From NCBI GenBank assembly GCA_041665485.1, contig JBAYIT010000002.1:69867-133866 (forward strand): a stretch of DNA of 64,000 nt, in the 5' to 3' direction. Of this stretch, positions 4,892 through 45,963 are shown in pieces (position 1 is the first letter of the stretch; every line of letters starts with the position of its first letter). A model generated the notes under the pieces. It saw only the letters and a program-made list of their open reading frames with translations, did not search any database and was not told the DNA's origin. The stretch is from Candidatus Shapirobacteria bacterium (GTDB lineage Bacteria; Patescibacteriota; Microgenomatia; UBA12405). A program made the position numbers and the translations under genes.

Positions 4892-5921
4892 ACAACTTCC
4901 TGTATCTTTTAGATATCACCTCTACCGAATACTTTTTCACAACAGTATCCCTCGCTTTTCCCCCCATTCTTTTCATAAGAGAATCATTTGTTATTAATTT
5001 TTCCAACGCGTCCACCCAGTCATCCTCAGTCGACGCAATTATTCCACCTCCTAAAAATCCGATCGCTTCTTTGTATGATCCTTGAGGTGAAGCTACAGCA
5101 GGCAGTCCCAATGCCATTCCCAAAGTAATCTTATACTCAGTATGACCCATTTCATAGGCATTACTTAACTTTTTGGGAGAGATGATAATATTGCTCTTTT
5201 TTAATTCTCGCAGATAGTTTTGATGACTAAACTCGACCCATTCACATTCCATAAACTTTTGAAAAACACCCATAATTTCCGGCCTTTCATCTGATACTAA
5301 AATCAACTTCAAACGATATTTTTCAGATAACTTCTTCAGAACATCTACAACTATCTCTAAATGAGCCGATTTTTTAGCCACACCACTCCAGACTAAATTT
5401 ACAGAATTATCAACAACGTAATTTATTCTACCCTTGTAAAAATTCATATCTACAGCATCGGGAATCATCACAACGTTGTTGTTATATTTTCTAACTACTG
5501 AAGCTATATAACTAGAATCAGCAATAACCACATCACAAATAGAAGCCATAGCAATAGCATCTCTATTCTGTTCGTAAGTAGGTTTTGTTCCAGGAACAAA
5601 ATAGTCTCCCCATACCTCAAAATAATTTACATTCGCGTCAAAGATCGTCATACTTCCATATTTTTTGATCTTCCTCGCTTCAACTTGACACTTCTCGTCC
5701 ATCATTTTTACAAATATTACAATATCGTACTTTTTTTTCGGATCATAAACCTCGTTCTTATATTCACTATTTTTATTTAACCATAGGGCTATATTTTTAC
5801 ACCTAACCTCCGACACCACCCCCTTGTAACCATATTGTTCAAGTTTTCTTTTTCCACCTACAAATGACTCATATGTTACCCAGCCAATTTTCCCCATCGA
5901 TTTCTTAAACCATACTATCAT
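4854..5921 (-). CDS. glycosyltransferase, GT-B fold (GT4-like)
   Basis: 355 aa. C-terminal EYKITLGMALGLPAVASPQGSYKEAIG is GT4-like. Confidence 0.6.
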   Translation of the reverse strand: MIVWFKKSMGKIGWVTYESFVGGKRKLEQYGYKGVVSEVRCKNIALWLNKNSEYKNEVYDPKKKYDIVIFVKMMDEKCQVEARKIKKYGSMTIFDANVNYFEVWGDYFVPGTKPTYEQNRDAIAMASICDVVIADSSYIASVVRKYNNNVVMIPDAVDMNFYKGRINYVVDNSVNLVWSGVAKKSAHLEIVVDVLKKLSEKYRLKLILVSDERPEIMGVFQKFMECEWVEFSHQNYLRELKKSNIIISPKKLSNAYEMGHTEYKITLGMALGLPAVASPQGSYKEAIGFLGGGIIASTEDDWVDALEKLITNDSLMKRMGGKARDTVVKKYSVEVISKRYRKLFGDLLVKNANVN

Positions 5922-6565
5922 ACACTTTCAACCTCACTCCAAATTTCCCCCCAATTAATCTTGATTTCATTAACTCTCAATCCGGCTTTCTTAATTTCAC
6001 GTCTAAAAGACTCTTCAGTATATTCAATGTAATGCGTTGGATCAAGTCGGTAATCAATCCCCAAGTCTTTCATTAACGCCGTTTGCCAATCTCGGTTTAT
6101 CATAGGCACCCTAATTAACCACCTCTTTGGGTTTATCTGTTTTTGAACCTTTTTTAAAAAATCAACTCTATTTTCTAAATGTTCCAACACATTTGACATA
6201 ACAATAGTATCAATTTTTGTACTCGGTAAATATGCAAGAGCGTCACCCAACACATACTCAATATTTTTATGGGGATACCTTTTTACTGCTATGTTATAGT
6301 TTTGTTTTGAAAGCTCTATTCCAATAATTTTTGCTCCAACCCTTGTCGCCATGTCATAATCAAGAAATCCGTTACCACAGCCAATATCTAGCACTATTTC
6401 ATTCTTCTTTAACTTATTACAGAAAAAATCATGATATTTGGTCAATCGGTGCTTTACATGCATTCCTTTATCCAAATTAAGACATTCATTATCTATCATC
6501 CTATCAAAGAAAAGCCTTACTCGAAACATCAATCTCAAACTTCTTTTTGTGTCAATAAATAGCAT
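5918..6565 (-). CDS. class I SAM-dependent methyltransferase
   Basis: VLDIGCGNGFL is the motif I glycine-rich loop. 215 aa. Last gene of a minus-strand GT operon. Confidence 0.7.
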   Translation of the reverse strand: MLFIDTKRSLRLMFRVRLFFDRMIDNECLNLDKGMHVKHRLTKYHDFFCNKLKKNEIVLDIGCGNGFLDYDMATRVGAKIIGIELSKQNYNIAVKRYPHKNIEYVLGDALAYLPSTKIDTIVMSNVLEHLENRVDFLKKVQKQINPKRWLIRVPMINRDWQTALMKDLGIDYRLDPTHYIEYTEESFRREIKKAGLRVNEIKINWGEIWSEVESV

Positions 6566-18420: not shown

Positions 18421-20081
18421 TTGTTGTCAAAATATACCCACTCCATTTGCGGTTGTCCATTAGTAACTTTAATTGTCAATATATCAGCGTAATCTTTTGA
18501 ATCAACTAGCAGGGGAGTCAACTTTAAACAAAGCCAATCTTCACCAACCACTATCGGCTTAAACTCTAAAATCATTTGTCTTTCTCCCTGAACATCCCAA
18601 GGCTTTAAATAACCATGTCTATATATTTTTTTACACTCACTATTCATTATCTGATACCGATAGGGGACTATTATCTTTTTGTTTCTGTTATCCAAGTTTA
18701 ACGCCAACCCAGAAATATTTTTCTCCGCCACCTCTTTTAATAAATTTGTTTCTTTGTCGATCAATAATAACTTATCTGCCGGCATTTTTAACTCTAATTT
18801 ATTTACTGTATTTCCCGACCAATCAAAATACCGATTCCATAAACTATTTCCCATATTTACTAACACCCCAACTAAAAGTAACCCTAATAATATGTTTTTA
18901 AAATAAACCATCAATCCACTAATTAGCACCAACCACAATGGCACCAACGGCAGCCAGTAACGCCCCTGTATTCCCTCCACACTACTATTCCCTGGGTAAG
19001 ACCACATCAGATACATCACCAAAGTTGTCAAAAAAGTTACTAAAAATATCACCCCACCGATTACCACCAATTCACTTAATTTGATTTTATTCTTTAAGTC
19101 TTTGGCCAGTCTAGCCACCACAAAAACCGCCAATATTACAAATGCAAAATATAAATAATTATTTATCATCGGCATATTTCTCCAACCCATTACCCCAACC
19201 ATTTCCTCAAAATGGGGCAAGAATTTTTCTACCCAAGTATCTTTAACTACTTCCAAGAAATATATTAGATCATTTTTGATTACTTCAAGCTGTAATTTCG
19301 GATTAACAAAAGTCGGATAATTATTTTCTCCTTTGCCCAATTTTCCCGTTCCTAAAACCATCACTGTTACCAGTCCAATTACTATAATTTTTCGTCTGTC
19401 TAACCCAAACAGTAGTATTAACGGCAAATAAACCGGCTTAATTATGCTAATTAGCAATACTATTGCATAAGCCAGCCAACCTCTGTGCTTACTAAACCAC
19501 AAGGCTGTTAGTGGCAACACTGAACCCAAAATTACCACGTCATAGCTATAGGCTGTAGCCTGATGGACCACCATTGGCATTAGAGCGTAAAACCAGAGCA
19601 AATATTCAAATTTTTTATTAATTATTTTTAGCCCAATCTTAAGCATTAAAAGCAAAAACAAAAATCCAAACAATCTACCGGCATAAAAAATCACTGCCGG
19701 CTGATTAGTCCAACTCGTAAGCCATACACCAAGAGAATTAGGAATATAACCTAAAAAGTTCAAACCACACCCTCCAATATTCACTGTTTCTTTTAAATCA
19801 TCTTTCGTCCAACTTCTATTAAAATCAATCAAACCAAGCGGAAATTTTTGGTTTTCCAGTAGCACTTTCTCGAAATTAAAACTTTTTTGTACATCTTCGT
19901 AAACCTTAGGAATAATAAAATGGCCATTTCGACAAAATAATTGCCCGGAACTTAAAGCCACCGCTCTCGTAAAATGAGCCGTCTCATCAAACTTTTGAAA
20001 CGGCGGTAAACCAAGGGTCAACAACAATCCTTCCGCCAAGAGAAAAACCACCAAAAACAATCTCATTATTTTTCTAAACAT
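18417..20081 (-). CDS. GT-C fold membrane glycosyltransferase (ArnT/PMT-like)
   Basis: 554 aa, polytopic. Loop 1 contains FQKFDETAHFTRAVALSSG, a DE..H..R motif as in PMT_2/ArnT-like enzymes. A large C-terminal periplasmic domain is present. Confidence 0.5.
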   Translation of the reverse strand: MFRKIMRLFLVVFLLAEGLLLTLGLPPFQKFDETAHFTRAVALSSGQLFCRNGHFIIPKVYEDVQKSFNFEKVLLENQKFPLGLIDFNRSWTKDDLKETVNIGGCGLNFLGYIPNSLGVWLTSWTNQPAVIFYAGRLFGFLFLLLMLKIGLKIINKKFEYLLWFYALMPMVVHQATAYSYDVVILGSVLPLTALWFSKHRGWLAYAIVLLISIIKPVYLPLILLFGLDRRKIIVIGLVTVMVLGTGKLGKGENNYPTFVNPKLQLEVIKNDLIYFLEVVKDTWVEKFLPHFEEMVGVMGWRNMPMINNYLYFAFVILAVFVVARLAKDLKNKIKLSELVVIGGVIFLVTFLTTLVMYLMWSYPGNSSVEGIQGRYWLPLVPLWLVLISGLMVYFKNILLGLLLVGVLVNMGNSLWNRYFDWSGNTVNKLELKMPADKLLLIDKETNLLKEVAEKNISGLALNLDNRNKKIIVPYRYQIMNSECKKIYRHGYLKPWDVQGERQMILEFKPIVVGEDWLCLKLTPLLVDSKDYADILTIKVTNGQPQMEWVYFDNK

Positions 20082-20787
20082 TAATTTTATTTTTCACCAA
20101 CATCCACACCGCCTCCCAAAAGTCTTTAAGTTTAATTTTTTTACCCTGTTGTTTATTGCGCGGGTTGTAACTAATCGGCACCTCATATATTTTTTCTCCG
20201 CTTTTTAAAATCTTGGCAGTTACCTCCGGGCAAAATTCAAATCTTTTTGATTCAAGCTTTATCGACTTTAATAATTTTGTTTCAAACATTTTATAACAAG
20301 TTGGCTCATCAGTGATATTTCCACCATACAAAAGATTGGTCAACAAAGTTAATACTTGGCCTCCCAAATAAAAACCAATTCCTGAATAATGGTTTTTTCG
20401 ACCCCCAAGTTGTCTTGAACCATAAACCACCCTCACCTTATTCTCCATCATTTTAGCTAACATTGTCTTGAAATCGTTTGGATCATACTCTAAATCTCCA
20501 TCCTGAACTACTGCCACGTCGCCTGTCATTTTTTTAAACCCAGTTCTCAAAGCCATGCTTTTGCCTTGATTCTTAAGGTGATTAACCAAAACAATTGGCA
20601 ATTTTTTTGACTTAATTATTTTTCCTAATTTATCCCCGGTACCGTCAGTTGACCCGTCGTTAACCACAATTATTTCTTTCTTTATTTCTCCCAAATCCAC
20701 ATCCGCCACTCTCTTAATAATCTTTTCAATCGTATTCTCTTCGTTATATACCGGAATAACTATCGATAATCTTTTTATTGATTTCAT
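20074..20787 (-). CDS. glycosyltransferase family 2, dolichyl/polyprenyl-phosphate hexosyltransferase-like (DPM1/GtrB-like)
   Basis: 237 aa. LSIVIPVYNEENTIEKII...IIVVNDGSTDGT and VQDGDLEYDP are GT2 motifs. Confidence 0.75.
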   Translation of the reverse strand: MKSIKRLSIVIPVYNEENTIEKIIKRVADVDLGEIKKEIIVVNDGSTDGTGDKLGKIIKSKKLPIVLVNHLKNQGKSMALRTGFKKMTGDVAVVQDGDLEYDPNDFKTMLAKMMENKVRVVYGSRQLGGRKNHYSGIGFYLGGQVLTLLTNLLYGGNITDEPTCYKMFETKLLKSIKLESKRFEFCPEVTAKILKSGEKIYEVPISYNPRNKQQGKKIKLKDFWEAVWMLVKNKINV

Positions 20788-33346: not shown

Positions 33347-33943
33347 ATGAATGAGTACGTTGGCCAACCAGTCTCCATCAGCAATATTCTTCCCAAAATT
33401 ACTAACCGAACTAAAACTATCTTTCTCGAATTCTGGTTATATGTTTTACGTCTTGTTGGCCTAATTCCTAGCCATACTATCCGCAATCTCTTTTACATCA
33501 TTTCCGGTATTAAAATGCCCTTTTTTGGTTCTGTCATTCATCTTGGCGCCAACTTTTTCACTCCTCAAGGCATTACTATCGGCCAAAACACCATTATCGG
33601 CTACAGATCTTTTCTTGACGGAAGAGGAAAACTTAAAATCGGCAACCATGTTGATATTGCCTCAGAAGTTATGATCTACACCGATGAACACGATGTTAAT
33701 TCAGAAAATTTCGGCAATTCTTTCGCTCCAGTAATTATTGAAGACTATGTCTTCATTGGACCCCGCTCAATTATTCTTCCTGGCGTAACTATCAGTAAAG
33801 GCGCCGTCGTTGCTGCCGGCGCTGTCGTTACTAAAAGCATCCCTCCAGGTGAAATTTGGGGCGGAGTTCCAGCCAAAAAAATAAAAGATCGTGGTCTAAA
33901 AAGCTACAATTACCGCCTCGGTCGGCCCATGCTTTTCCAATGA
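33347..33943 (+). CDS. sugar O-acetyltransferase, left-handed beta-helix (hexapeptide repeat; WbbJ/LacA-like)
   Basis: Repeating [LIV]G-x4 hexapeptides ([41 protein letters not shown]) and C-terminal [15 protein letters not shown]. Confidence 0.75.
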
Positions 33944-42053: not shown

Positions 42054-43937
42054 GTGAAAATAAAAAACATTCTCATTTCTATTATTTCTGTTCTAGTAAT
42101 TCTTGGCACTGTTCTTAGTTGCCTCGGCTTCTTTTTTGTTTATCTTCCCGGAAAGGAAGTTCAACAATCAGTTCAAAACGCAGTCGATAAGACCAAAACA
42201 CTCCAACAGGCTATTAGCTCCAAAGATCTTAAACTGGCCAAAGAAACATTAGTCGACGTCCGCCGACAACTCCAGGTAGTTAGTCAAAAAACAGAAAAAT
42301 TTAAATTTTTTCAAAAGTTACCCCGATTAAAATATTACTATCAAGACTCGCAGACTTTTCTTGATATTGCCAGTAATTCTATTGATATTGGCGATATTGT
42401 TATCGCTGCCATCGAGCCATATTCTGATTTTCTTGGACTTGCTGGTAGTAGCACCGATAGTGCTAAAACCACCCAAGATAGAATTGCTTTCCTAACCCAA
42501 AGTGTTGAAAGCCTGATTCCTCACCTTAATAGCATCGAAACCAAATTTGGCCAAATCAAATCTGACCTCGATAAAATTGATCCCAATCTATATCCTGAAA
42601 ATCTTCGTGGCTACCCGCTTCGCTCATACCTAATGAAGGCCAAACAAATGACTGACGAAACCTACGGCTATTTTAAAGACAGCCGTCCGTTACTTGAAAA
42701 AACTGCTTGGCTACTTGGCAAAGATAAACCCCGAAACTACTTTCTCATTTTTCAAAATGATGCGGAACTTCGCCCGACTGGGGGATTTTGGACCGCCTAC
42801 GGTATTCTCAAAGTCGATAATGGCAAAGTTACACCCCTAATCTCTGATGATATCTACGCTCTCGACGCCAAATTTCAAAGCACCATTCCTGCCCCTCGCC
42901 CGATCAAGGCCTATCATCTCAACGTCCCTTACTGGAATTTACGGGACATGAATATCTCTCCAGATTTTCCTGAAAGCATCAAAACTTTCTTAGGATACTA
43001 CAATAAAATATCTGGCAACAAAGACAAAATAGACGCTGTCGTCGCCATTGACACCCAAGTTCTGGTTGACCTTGTTAAGGTTTTGGGTAGAGTTGGTGTT
43101 TCCGGCTGGGGAAACTTTTCTGCCGACCCCGACAAACGCTGTGATGGTTGCCCTCAAATTATCTATCAACTTGAATGGATTGCCGGCCGGCCCAGAAATT
43201 ACATTGAAACTGATCGCAAGGGCTTTCTTGGCCCTCTAATGCAAGCCCTGTTAAGCAATGCTATGGGGTCAGAAAAAAGTAAAATCCCTCTCTTGGTAGA
43301 AGCCGCCGTTAATAATATTCACCAGAAACATATCCTCTTCTATTTTATTGACCCTTTAATGCAACAGTCAGCCGTTACTGCCAATGTTTCCGGCTCAATC
43401 TATCAATCACCGGCTAAGATGGACTATTTTCATCTCAACGATGCCAATATGAGCAGTGCCAAAACAAATTTATTTTTAAAACAAAAAATTAAACACGAAA
43501 TTATTTCTCAAAACGGTGTCGTCGAACATAAAGTCACCATTACTTATCAAAATCCGTCCAAAGCTAGTAATTGTAATCTAGAAAAAGGAGACCTTTGTCT
43601 CAACGCCCCTAAATATCGTGATTGGTTTAGGTTCTATGTTCCCCTCGGTTCCAAATTAGTTAAAATGACCGGCTCTGAAGTTGATCCGGTTCTTTACGAA
43701 GAACTAGGCAAGCAAGTTTTTGAAGGATTTTATGGCAACAAATATCCTCTTTATGCTCAAGGTAGCCTTAAAACATCAATCCAATACCAATCATCAGTCG
43801 CCCCAAGTAGTCAATATACTCTCTACCTCCAAAAACAACCCGGAACCAAGGCTATTCCCTATGAACTTTGGGTCAATGGTCAAAAATACGACGAGTTTTC
43901 CTGGACAACCGACAAGATCATCAAACTCTCTCTTTAA
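42054..43937 (+). CDS. DUF4012 domain protein (exported, N-terminal TM anchor)
   Basis: GTG start. FLIFQNDAELRPTGGFWTAYGILKVDNGKV matches the DUF4012 conserved ELRPTGGF motif. 627 aa. Confidence 0.55.
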   Translation: MKIKNILISIISVLVILGTVLSCLGFFFVYLPGKEVQQSVQNAVDKTKTLQQAISSKDLKLAKETLVDVRRQLQVVSQKTEKFKFFQKLPRLKYYYQDSQTFLDIASNSIDIGDIVIAAIEPYSDFLGLAGSSTDSAKTTQDRIAFLTQSVESLIPHLNSIETKFGQIKSDLDKIDPNLYPENLRGYPLRSYLMKAKQMTDETYGYFKDSRPLLEKTAWLLGKDKPRNYFLIFQNDAELRPTGGFWTAYGILKVDNGKVTPLISDDIYALDAKFQSTIPAPRPIKAYHLNVPYWNLRDMNISPDFPESIKTFLGYYNKISGNKDKIDAVVAIDTQVLVDLVKVLGRVGVSGWGNFSADPDKRCDGCPQIIYQLEWIAGRPRNYIETDRKGFLGPLMQALLSNAMGSEKSKIPLLVEAAVNNIHQKHILFYFIDPLMQQSAVTANVSGSIYQSPAKMDYFHLNDANMSSAKTNLFLKQKIKHEIISQNGVVEHKVTITYQNPSKASNCNLEKGDLCLNAPKYRDWFRFYVPLGSKLVKMTGSEVDPVLYEELGKQVFEGFYGNKYPLYAQGSLKTSIQYQSSVAPSSQYTLYLQKQPGTKAIPYELWVNGQKYDEFSWTTDKIIKLSL

Positions 43938-43939
43938 TA

Positions 43940-44494
43940 ATGTCCGAATTTGTTGTTACAAGGGCAATCGTCATCAATCGTCTCCCCAAGGAAAATAATA
44001 TTGACATCACTCTTCTCACCGAAAAACTGGGTAAGATTTACGTCAAAGCCAATGGGGCCCAAAAGATAACCAGTCGTCGTTTGGGCCAAATTCAACTCGG
44101 CAATATTATCAACGCCCATCTCTATCGTCATCAAAACAGCTTTTGGTTATCCGAAAGCATCGTCGAATCAGCCTTTCTCCAAAACCAAATCAGCCTGTCA
44201 CAATCAAACCTTCTCTTTTTTATCCTAGAAGTTAGCAATCGACTTCTCCCCACCGAAGTCAATCAACCGGAGATATTTTTCACCATCAAGCAAGCTGTCG
44301 ATAACATCAAAAGAAATTCTTTTGCCAAATTAATTGACAATGAAATCAAATTTCTTGATCTTCTTGGGTTCGGCCCACCCGAAGAGATAATTTTATCTTT
44401 CGATCAAAAAAAATATCGTCACTGCCAACAGCTAATTACCGCCTATTTCGAATCTCTCACCAACTACCAATTCCAAAGTTTAAAATTATGGTAA
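43940..44494 (+). CDS. recO: DNA repair protein RecO-like (short, N-terminal OB-fold plus helical region)
   Basis: Start at ATG 43940. RAIVINRLPKENNIDITLLTEKLGKIYVKANGAQKITSRRLGQIQLGNIIN is a RecO-type OB-fold pattern. 184 aa is shorter than canonical RecO. Confidence 0.5.
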   Translation: MSEFVVTRAIVINRLPKENNIDITLLTEKLGKIYVKANGAQKITSRRLGQIQLGNIINAHLYRHQNSFWLSESIVESAFLQNQISLSQSNLLFFILEVSNRLLPTEVNQPEIFFTIKQAVDNIKRNSFAKLIDNEIKFLDLLGFGPPEEIILSFDQKKYRHCQQLITAYFESLTNYQFQSLKLW

Positions 44495-44640
44495 ACTAAC
44501 AGATTGCAACGATGAAAAGGTTGGCATCTTGGAGTTGCTAAACAAAGTGGTCCGATAACTATCGGACAACCAGAGTGGAACCGCGGCTTTCGAAAATAAT
44601 TCGAAATTCGTCTCTGATAATTATTTAATTATTAGAGACC
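44495..44640 (+). ncRNA. T-box riboswitch-like leader (glycine specific) upstream of glyS
   Basis: T-box consensus-like AGAGUGGAACCGCGG at 44572-44586, including the UGGA bulge that pairs with tRNA-Gly ACCA/UCCA. A stem gcaac...gttgc (44506-44538) encloses a loop containing GGC followed by A (Gly specifier) at 44523-44526. Downstream hairpin tttcgaa-aataa-ttcgaaa (44588-44606). Sits directly 5' of the glycyl-tRNA synthetase ATG. Confidence 0.5.
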
Positions 44641-45963
44641 ATGGAACAAAATAAAAACCAAGACGACACCGTCAGTAAAATAGTATCCCTGTGTAAACGT
44701 CGGGGAATAATCTTTCAAAATAGCGAGATTTACGGCGGGGTTCAAGGTTTCTATGATTTTGGCCCAATTGGTTCTTTAATGAAAAAAAATTGGAAAGATG
44801 CGTGGATCCATGACAACGTCACCAGTCGTAAAGACGTGGTCATGATCGACGGTTCAATTATTACTCACCCCCGTGTCTGGGAAGCCTCCGGCCATGTTAA
44901 AAATTTTGCTGATGATTTGGTCGAATGCAAATCCTGCCACAAAAGATTTCGCCCCGACCTTATTAATAATGCCGCCAAATGTCCTGAATGTAATGGTGAA
45001 CTTACCGACCCCCGCAAATACAATATTCTTTTTCATACCGAAATTGGGGTTATTGAAGGTGAAAAACTCCCTGCCTATCTAAGAGGAGAAGCCTGCCAAA
45101 CCATTTATCTCGATTTCAAAAATATTGTCGATAGCACCAGGGTAAAAATCCCCTTTGGTATCGCCCAAATAGGGAAAGCCTTTAGAAACGAAATCACTCC
45201 CAAAAACTTCCTTTATCGCACCCGCGAATTCGAGCAATGGGATATTCAATATTTCGTTCACCCCTCCGATATGGACAAGTGGTACGAATATTGGAAAAGT
45301 CAAAGAATGTCTTGGTACCAAAAATATTTTAATCAACAAGACAATTTACGTTTCCGCCAACACCAACCAGACGAATTAGTTTTTTATGCCAAAAAAGCCT
45401 TTGATATTGAATTTAATGCTCCTTGGGGCTGGGCTGAAATGGAAGGTATCCATTGGCGCTCTGACTACGATCTTACCCAACATTCCAAGTTTAGTGGCCA
45501 AGATTTGTCTTATCTTGATCCGATTACTCACGAAAAGTATCTTCCCTGGATTGCCGAAACTTCCGGAGGAGTCGACCGTAGTTTTTTCTTCCTCCTTCTT
45601 GATAGCTATCGGGAAGACAAACTAGAATCCGGCGAAATCCGCACTTGGCTCAAAATCCACCCCAAAATCGCCGCCTATAAAGCCGCCATCTTCCCTCTGG
45701 CTTCAAATAAACCAGAGTTAGTTTCCAAAGCCGAAAGTATTTATCAAACTTTATCGCAAAACTATTCTATCGATTTTGATGATAGTAGTAATATCGGTAA
45801 AAAATACCGTCGCCAAGACGAAATTGGCACCCCTTGGTGTGTTGTTGTTGACTACCAAACCATCACCGACAACACTGTCACTATTCGTGACCGCGACACC
45901 ATGGAACAAATTCGGCTTTCAAGTCAGGATCTTTCTTCTTGGTTACAAACTAAACTATCTTAA
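44641..45963 (+). CDS. glyS: glycine--tRNA ligase, alpha2 homodimeric type
   Basis: N-terminus LCKRRGIIFQNSEIYGGVQGFYDFGPIGSLMKKNW is the class II GlyRS signature. Motif 2/3 regions present (FRNEITPKNFLYRTREFEQ, GGVDRSFF). Confidence 0.85.
   Translation: MEQNKNQDDTVSKIVSLCKRRGIIFQNSEIYGGVQGFYDFGPIGSLMKKNWKDAWIHDNVTSRKDVVMIDGSIITHPRVWEASGHVKNFADDLVECKSCHKRFRPDLINNAAKCPECNGELTDPRKYNILFHTEIGVIEGEKLPAYLRGEACQTIYLDFKNIVDSTRVKIPFGIAQIGKAFRNEITPKNFLYRTREFEQWDIQYFVHPSDMDKWYEYWKSQRMSWYQKYFNQQDNLRFRQHQPDELVFYAKKAFDIEFNAPWGWAEMEGIHWRSDYDLTQHSKFSGQDLSYLDPITHEKYLPWIAETSGGVDRSFFFLLLDSYREDKLESGEIRTWLKIHPKIAAYKAAIFPLASNKPELVSKAESIYQTLSQNYSIDFDDSSNIGKKYRRQDEIGTPWCVVVDYQTITDNTVTIRDRDTMEQIRLSSQDLSSWLQTKLS

Follow-up and report, generated by a model that had tools for sequence, protein, structure and literature searches.

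A reduced glycine T-box-type leader, probably acting on translation, upstream of glyS in Candidatus Shapirobacteria

Introduction

How much of a T-box riboswitch can be lost before it stops sensing tRNA? T-boxes are a model system for the way in which a structured RNA reads another RNA, and current accounts require three contacts with the tRNA: one at the anticodon, one at the 3' end and a third that involves either the elbow or Stem II. A locus in Candidatus Shapirobacteria raises this question in an acute form. In a 64,000-nt stretch of contig JBAYIT010000002.1 (the whole stretch analysed, hereafter the window), a gap of 146 nt separates the stop codon of a recO-like gene (44494) from the ATG of glyS (44641) on the + strand. 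The glyS gene (44641-45963, +) encodes a dimeric (alpha2) glycine-tRNA ligase (GlyRS; NCBIfam NF003211, 556 bits; TIGR00389, 466 bits) with Pfam tRNA-synt_2b and HGTP_anticodon domains. A preliminary description of the sequence had proposed that the gap holds a glycine T-box-type leader of minimal size. From its sequence, its predicted folds and its relatives, we consider it likely that this leader is a reduced, glycine-specific T-box riboswitch controlling glyS translation.

Anatomy of the leader

The leader opens with an ultrashort Stem I of 33 nt (44506-44538, +), predicted by folding and supported by covariation. Its 5-bp basal helix pairs GCAAC (44506-44510) with GUUGC (44534-44538) and is followed by a K-turn-like motif, composed of a 3-nt bulge GAU (44511-44513) and the pairs G44514·A44533 and A44515·G44532, that aligns to gaUGA of the Rfam T-box model RF00230, a likeness at the sequence level only. 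A 4-bp upper helix (AAGG, 44517-44520, with UCUU, 44527-44530) then closes the terminal loop UUGGCA (44521-44526). This loop carries the specifier, the glycine codon GGC (44523-44525, +), which fits the glyS gene downstream and is followed by A44526, so that the helix presenting GGC-A at 44506-44538 in the preliminary description is confirmed, with the codon in the terminal loop.

Two candidate -10 boxes precede Stem I on the + strand: a putative extended box TGGTAAACT (44489-44497), 8 nt ahead of Stem I, and the alternative TAAAAT (44481-44486). From either one, the transcript would begin at Stem I or just 5' of it. Likewise, 18 of 21 homologous leaders have a TATAAT or TAAAAT hexamer 6-13 nt 5' of the base at which Stem I pairing begins, and this position of the -10 boxes directly 5' of Stem I argues that no long Stem I is hidden upstream. 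A generic promoter scan called no site at the glyS leader.

Between Stem I and Stem III there is a linker of only 11 nt (44539-44549), ending in AAGUG, with no credible Stem II in the RF00230 alignment and no pseudoknot. AAGUG (44545-44549, +), the purine-rich 5' flank of Stem III (RRRxG), is nearly invariant in the leader alignment. Stem III itself (44550-44567, +; GUCCGAU/AUCGGAC with loop AACU; -9.9 kcal/mol, z = -5.4) is directly followed by AA (44568-44569), giving the RRRxG-Stem III-AA pattern described for T-box discriminators (PMC11404447). A minus-strand terminator-like call at 44550-44567 was discarded as Stem III reversed plus the A-rich linker; both neighbouring genes lie on the + strand.

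The T-box sequence AGAGUGGAACCGCGG had been placed at 44572-44586, 55 nt ahead of the glyS ATG, and is indeed found there (AGAGTGGAACCGCGG, + strand, its last base 55 nt ahead of the ATG at 44641). It belongs to an antiterminator-like element (44571-44616, +; -14.1 kcal/mol, with none of 200 shuffled sequences as stable), which would act here as an anti-sequestrator. Helix A1 pairs CAGAG (44571-44575) with CUCUG (44612-44616); the 7-nt bulge UGGAACC (44576-44582) has UGGA at its 5' edge, adjoining A1; and helix A2 pairs GCGG (44583-44586) with UCGU (44608-44611). A2 is prolonged by a distal 7-bp extension (44588-44606, +) in which UUUCGAA (44588-44594) pairs with UUCGAAA (44600-44606). The preliminary description had recognised this last hairpin and taken it for a weak terminator; the hairpin exists, but it is the distal part of A2 within the antiterminator-like fold, is present in both conformers and is not followed by a U-run. 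From Stem I to the 3' strand of A1 the aptamer measures 111 nt (44506-44616), in a family whose members range from 88 to 124 nt.

Conservation and covariation in relatives

Retrieval based on GlyRS, with one genome per species, gave 59 loci (numbered below with the prefix L), the closest of which (69-85% GlyRS identity) belong to Candidatus Shapirobacteria and other Microgenomates of the Patescibacteria. In the comparison with related glyS leaders advised in the preliminary description, a homologous leader was found at 19 of the 47 Shapirobacteria-type glyS loci having upstream sequence. The GGC of the Stem I loop and GGUGGAACC are invariant in all 20 genome-derived leaders, while the helices diverge yet stay paired.

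Because MAFFT alignments misplaced the 3' strands of the variable helices, we used pairing-independent anchors and model-based realignment instead. In the anchored analysis of A2, bases at equal distances downstream of UGGAACC and upstream of the CCCU block were matched, both anchors being independent of pairing. Canonical pairs amounted to 94 of 100 in the true register, as against 35-54 of 100 in shifted registers and 57% when strands were swapped between sequences. Directly above the bulge, the pair is G-U, G-C, A-U, U-A or C-G depending on the genome, and A1 occurs in the compensatory variants AGGG/CCCU, AGAG/CUCU (the window) and GAGG/CCUC. In a realignment of 27 sequences, 87.2% of the cells were paired (61.3% after shuffling, 37-52% in slid registers) and all 31 pairs had changed on both sides; with 54 sequences the figures were 87.1%, 60.0%, 36-50% and 30 of 31 pairs. 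In neither alignment did any of 500 shuffles match the observed value on any of five measures. Within the 54-sequence alignment, the two helices of Stem I pair in 79% and 82% of the cells, with 10 of 10 pairs changed on both sides, and Stem III in 93%, with 8 of 8.

Other parts come and go. The K-turn is kept in 15 of the 20 leaders, whereas Stem I is a plain hairpin in L001, L009, L011, L024 and L038, and Stem III is missing from three (L001, L008 and L024), variants of 88-92 nt. As a separate observation, enlarged Stem III loops in about 20 of the 54 leaders (L003, L005, L017, L019, L053, L055, L043 copy 2, L087, L095 copy 2 and others) carry a recurrent A(A/C/U)(U/C)UGGA(A/U), absent from the AACU loop of the window, that could represent another UGGA or a pentanucleotide of the T-loop type.

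A competing hairpin at the start codon

A hairpin of 13 bp, GUCUCUGAUAAUU/AAUUAUUAGAGAC (44610-44639, +; -14.6 kcal/mol, z = -7.4), is predicted to occlude the start region of glyS. Its 3' end lies 1 nt ahead of the ATG, and the minimum-energy fold of the full leader includes it, covering the 30 nt directly ahead of the AUG. This sequestrator hairpin and the 3' strands of A2 and A1 have GUCUCUG (44610-44616) in common, and the two folds are hence mutually exclusive, which provides the alternative structures that the preliminary description had advised looking for. The three interacting segments have been altered jointly in the window (AGAG / CUCU / AGAG). A hairpin adjoining the ATG and reusing the 3' strand of A1 is found in all 20 leaders. 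In each of 18 leaders folded without ligand, the occluding hairpin gives the minimum-energy fold, the T-box fold being 0.9-10.7 kcal/mol costlier (8.0 in the window). Directly 3' of the hairpin stands CCAUGGAAC, with no U-run. Since there is no U-run and the competing hairpin abuts the ATG, control is probably translational, by occlusion of the start codon region. Judged by these folding energies, the leader would be OFF by default, with an energy gap that tRNA binding could plausibly cover.

We speak of start-region occlusion, having rejected the wording 'Shine-Dalgarno sequestration': tetramers resembling a Shine-Dalgarno (SD) sequence occur at -20 to -4 in only 6 of the 57 open reading frames (ORFs) of at least 150 aa in the window, whose genome seems to use SD sequences rarely. 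The AAGGA seen in relatives may be merely the complement of UCCCU.

For the tRNA-driven steps we reason from the mechanism of known T-boxes (PMC7583486, PMC7778990). Uncharged tRNA-Gly(GCC) would contact the leader twice, its anticodon pairing with GGC in the terminal loop of Stem I and its 3' UCCA with the UGGA of the bulge; stacking of A1/A2 on Stem III would then favour the T-box fold. With CUCUG held in A1, the hairpin ahead of the ATG could not form and the start region would be freed, so that undercharged tRNA-Gly would lead to more GlyRS. Charged tRNA would be kept from docking by its glycyl group, allowing the hairpin to reform. Recognition would thus rest, unlike in described T-boxes, on two short duplexes alone, which the K-turn and Stem III could assist; no elbow-binding platform, Stem II or pseudoknot would take part.

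Detection by Rfam and by motif

A permissive Rfam scan of 44300-44800 (501 nt) returned a single meaningful match, to RF00230 at 44482-44618 (30.9 bits, E = 3.6e-5). This match, together with the conservation and covariation described above, bears out the glycine T-box-type leader first proposed for this locus. Of model positions 1-219, which it spans, 87 in Stem I are deleted, while the K-turn, Stem III and the T-box/antiterminator align. At gathering scores, Rfam found no family across the 64-kb window and nothing in 20 loci, so that only the scans below threshold were informative, and the most reduced relative, L001, had no RF00230 match even at E <= 10. Nor is the T-box 11-mer significant by itself, being expected 0.72 times in the window and present at least once in 53 of 100 shuffles. 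A family covariance model built on the 20 leaders (R1) scores the window leader at 65 bits, and an exhaustive unfiltered R1 scan detected no second copy in the window, the next best score being 13 bits.

The leader has a bulged antiterminator, a specifier matching the gene, an alternative helix, the Stem III flanks and the K-turn, which are the core traits of a T-box; the long Stem I, with its internal specifier loop, AG bulge and interdigitated T-loops, is not there. On these sequence traits, the glyS leader is a T-box relative that has every core trait that can be assessed here. Standard annotation overlooks such short leaders, on which RF00230 at gathering fails. The published class II model covered Actinobacteria reference genomes and class-I matches with truncated Stem I (PMC7778990). 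The true distribution of short leaders is probably underestimated.

Comparison with known T-boxes

The leader resembles the glycyl T-boxes of the Bacillota (glyQS/glyQ of Bacillus, Geobacillus and Oceanobacillus; glyS of Staphylococcus and Clostridium) in its GGC and UGGAACC, the absence of Stem II and pseudoknot, the single-stranded linker, the K-turn at the base of Stem I and the RRRxG-Stem III-AA flanks (PMC11404447, PMC7583486), UGGAACC being the reported bulge of glycyl T-boxes (PMC11404447). Those T-boxes differ in having a terminator output and a long Stem I, whose internal loop holds the specifier and whose distal, interdigitated T-loops dock the tRNA elbow, whereas in the window Stem I reaches no further than the specifier and the region of the start codon is covered by the output hairpin. 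Over the same parts, the window leader takes 111 nt and the glyQS construct 182 nt (PMC6197855), in line with the preliminary description, which had judged the leader to be shorter than the already small Bacillus glyQS T-box. The same description had read a T-box as a sign of Firmicutes or relatives; in this it was mistaken, as the host is Candidatus Shapirobacteria, of the Patescibacteria or Candidate Phyla Radiation.

A second likeness is with the ultrashort T-boxes of Actinobacteria (Mycobacterium smegmatis, M. tuberculosis; Sherwood et al. 2015), which "all... regulate expression of ileS genes" (10.1101/2023.02.28.530422). According to that report and two other papers (PMC7583486, PMC11297988), they too carry the specifier in the terminal loop of a short Stem I, lack the double T-loop platform that binds the elbow, show a UGGN bulge after Stem III, and have a sequestrator and anti-sequestrator with a common strand and translational output. 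They differ in keeping Stem II and the IIA/B pseudoknot, deemed essential with a truncated Stem I, neither of which exists in the window, and in their isoleucine specifier, as opposed to GGC, glyS and a patescibacterial host; the aptamer spans 166 nt in the M. tuberculosis ileS construct (PMC11297988) and 111 nt in the window. As far as the searchable literature extends, an ultrashort Stem I is described for ileS only and always with Stem II. The window leader unites both reductions, the truncated Stem I and the missing Stem II. According to a review account, a strong GGC:GCC duplex lets glycine T-boxes do without Stem II, which offers a rationale for the appearance of so extreme a reduction with glycine.

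The glyS leaders of Dictyobacter (Chloroflexota) precede dimeric GlyRS 57-58% identical to that of the window and also have no Stem II, but they differ in their full-length Stem I (63.8 bits with RF00230 in L046), UGGG bulge and U-run after the 3' hairpin. They lie about 165-175 nt ahead of the GlyRS match (L046-L049 and L059). Identity to the window GlyRS is 57-58% in Dictyobacter, 56% in Gottesmanbacteria and 48% in Saccharibacteria, and a transfer of glyS between the Dictyobacter and Patescibacteria lineages is possible on these sequence identities.

Weighing the alternatives

Several points weigh against a functional glycine riboswitch at this locus. At 30.9 bits, the RF00230 match is far under the gathering score of 93, and formal Rfam membership failed; that score also excludes the full-length Dictyobacter glycine T-box and is therefore a stringent yardstick. 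The preliminary description had named two outcomes that together would speak against a T-box, no Rfam hit above threshold and no way to draw mutually exclusive helices; the first was obtained, but the second was not, as such helices were found. About 60% (28 of 47) of the related glyS loci are without a leader. The covariation counts for 27 and 54 sequences come from model-fitted alignments, for which the anchored A2 comparison is the independent check. The rarity of SD use in this genome leaves SD sequestration unproven here. No tRNA-Gly gene was recovered from the window or from some 90 loci, which yielded only one tRNA-Ser and one tRNA-Arg, and the discriminator and anticodon loop are assumed; U73 is usual in bacterial tRNA-Gly. 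Finally, a point mutation in the elbow-binding T-loop of glyQS lowers tRNA affinity about 40-fold (PMC6197855), and by analogy a leader with neither elbow platform nor Stem II might bind tRNA too weakly.

If the leader is a T-box, it could instead act by transcription attenuation, as most described T-boxes do (PMC7583486), with one of the 3' hairpins as a terminator, perhaps U-run-independent or Rho-assisted. Short-Stem-I relatives with a hairpin and a U-run do exist (L043 copy 1, L066, L128, the first copies of L095 and L111, and Bacilli-like leaders). In the window, however, the hairpin at 44610-44639 is followed by CCAUGGAACAAAAUAAAAACC, without a U-run, the terminator scan of the + strand gave no terminator-like site, and the hairpin at 44588-44606 lies inside the antiterminator fold and hence does not compete with it. 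These facts, and the competing hairpin placed against the ATG in all 20 Shapirobacteria leaders, make attenuation unlikely here. The leader might also be the decaying, non-functional remnant of an ancestral T-box, whose pre-ATG hairpin would affect only mRNA stability or basal translation. The loss of distal Stem I and Stem II, with Stem III or the K-turn also gone in some relatives, would fit such a decay, as would the many related genomes without leader and the weak hairpin of L006 (-3.6 kcal/mol), which has no SD-like sequence. A remnant is nonetheless hard to reconcile with GGC and GGUGGAACC remaining invariant while the helices compensate, across GlyRS 41-85% identical to that of the window, or with the maintenance of the three-way complementarity AGAG/CUCU/AGAG, and we regard it as quite unlikely.

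There is also the possibility of a protein-binding operator, in which a protein, GlyRS or another, would repress its own translation by binding to the leader, as Escherichia coli ThrRS does at the thrS operator. The place of the hairpin, next to the start codon of an aminoacyl-tRNA synthetase, would suit translational autoregulation. Yet the Stem I loop carries the codon GGC and not the anticodon GCC, with no mimicry of the tRNA-Gly anticodon arm; the conserved parts are the tRNA-binding parts of T-boxes (the UGGAACC bulge, the RRRxG-Stem III-AA flanks and the K-turn); and the same type of leader also occurs ahead of glyA and glyQ, all of which renders an operator very improbable. We therefore retain a translational glycine T-box as the likely function of the leader.

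The related loci without leader have an organisation of their own. There (L002, L004, L007, L010, L012, L016, L021, L022, L025, L027, L029 and others), the recO stop codon is followed by TATAAT and, 5-8 nt on, by the ATG, so that glyS looks leaderless. Judged from the sequences of these loci, the interval from recO to glyS has acquired or lost the leader more than once.

Wider distribution and tandem copies

The R1 model recovers all 20 training leaders and, in addition, two tandem copies on which it had not been trained, in Candidatus Gottesmanbacteria L043 (866-990 and 1049-1168). These tandem leaders (region 829-1193) are preceded by a sigma-70 promoter matching the consensus at 12 of 12 positions (TTGACA-16-TATAAT) and head an operon of glyA (serine hydroxymethyltransferase, SHMT), a 180-aa ORF of unknown function and glyS. 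Copy 1 leads into a hairpin and a run of 7 U, copy 2 into a hairpin over GGAGG and AUG. A similar tandem arrangement was also seen at L098, L105, L107 and L129.

A metagenome search for the K-turn ATGA, followed by TGGC within 3-9 nt and the T-box within 35-65 nt, returned 91 stretches, also numbered with the prefix L. Among them, with example loci in brackets, are a Shapirobacteria-like group (L060, L070, L092, L135; GlyRS 72-84% identical to that of the window), Gottesmanbacteria-like tandem pairs (L098, L105, L107; SHMT 87-91% identical to that of L043), leaders resembling those of small-genome metagenome-assembled "Bacilli bacterium" genomes (L063, L071, L097, L114; mostly dimeric GlyRS, 41-45% identical), other tandem pairs (L095/L122 and L111, with a glyS 43% identical downstream in L095) and a short form ahead of glyQ, the GlyRS alpha subunit gene (L141). 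Hits ahead of glyQ such as L139, L096 and L079 were rejected as classical Streptococcus-like glyQS leaders, false positives that arise because AUGA...UGGC falls within their specifier internal loop, and L072, L119 and L133 were set aside as classical or intermediate forms. Short-Stem-I glycine leaders are, on this sequence survey, not confined to candidate phyla. Every confident example reads GGC save one tandem copy with GGA, a uniformity biased by the metagenome pattern, which required GGC. That exception, the second tandem copy of L111 (1052-1178, minus strand), has the Stem I loop UUGGAAAA, with GGA in place of GGC; its sequence suggests tuning to tRNA-Gly(UCC), beside a GGC copy.

The Bacilli-like leaders have a short Stem I and then a hairpin with a U-run; RF00230 scores that of L071 at 45.3 bits, and Infernal treats the short Stem I of this group as an unaligned insertion. 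In several of them (L071, L097, L114, L118, L142, L082), helix A1 is lengthened downward by the hairpin before the U-run, in which the sequence following CCCU is paired with the linker and the 3' half of Stem III. The 'terminator' fold thereby retains A1, the bulge and A2 and competes with Stem III, unlike the classical T-box terminator. On Bacilli-like contigs, short leaders also stand ahead of ORFs other than glyS, glyQ and glyA, namely a 244-aa ORF without Pfam match in L082 (13604-14335) and a 132-aa ORF in L149 (176-571); both may be unrecognised glycine-related genes.

A possible minimal class

A bolder reading, which we offer tentatively and believe somewhat less probable than its opposite, is that these leaders form a natural minimal class of tRNA sensors, reading tRNA by two short duplexes only, with no elbow contact, no Stem II and, in the 88-92-nt variants, no Stem III. 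The loop UUGGCA is complementary to UGCCAA, which we take to be the sequence of U33-A38 in tRNA-Gly(GCC), and among 22 unselected leaders 18 carry U immediately ahead of GGC; going by these sequences, pairing between loop and anticodon could extend to 5-6 bp. Were this reading true, it would overturn three claims of the literature: that a truncated Stem I makes Stem II essential, that all T-boxes have Stem III, and that the ultrashort class is restricted to ileS. The relatives with a U-run would then show a transcriptional T-box working without an elbow-binding platform. A family keeping only the contacts with the anticodon and the 3' end, down to 88 nt, would make it possible to test which contacts are needed, and its short leaders would offer a compact object for structural studies and for the engineering of tRNA-responsive switches. 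The leaders described here place T-box regulation in the Patescibacteria (Shapirobacteria and Gottesmanbacteria); full-text literature searches found no report joining T-boxes with Patescibacteria or the Candidate Phyla Radiation; TBDB or other papers may already list such leaders.

Genomic context and expression signals

ARAGORN detected no tRNA or tmRNA genes across the 64-kb window. A TAnnnT box lies 5-9 nt 5' of the ATG in 17 of the same 57 ORFs, for instance at 33347, 45978 and 49355 and, on the minus strand, at the ORFs 20074-20787 and 5918-6565; the position of these boxes suggests that many mRNAs of this genome are leaderless. The recO-like gene that precedes the leader (43868-44494, +) matches RecO_N with 33.6 bits. 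Upstream of it lies a gene for a 627-aa DUF4012 protein (42054-43937), and downstream of glyS there are a 230-aa ORF without Pfam match and a gene for a MraW/RsmH methyltransferase.

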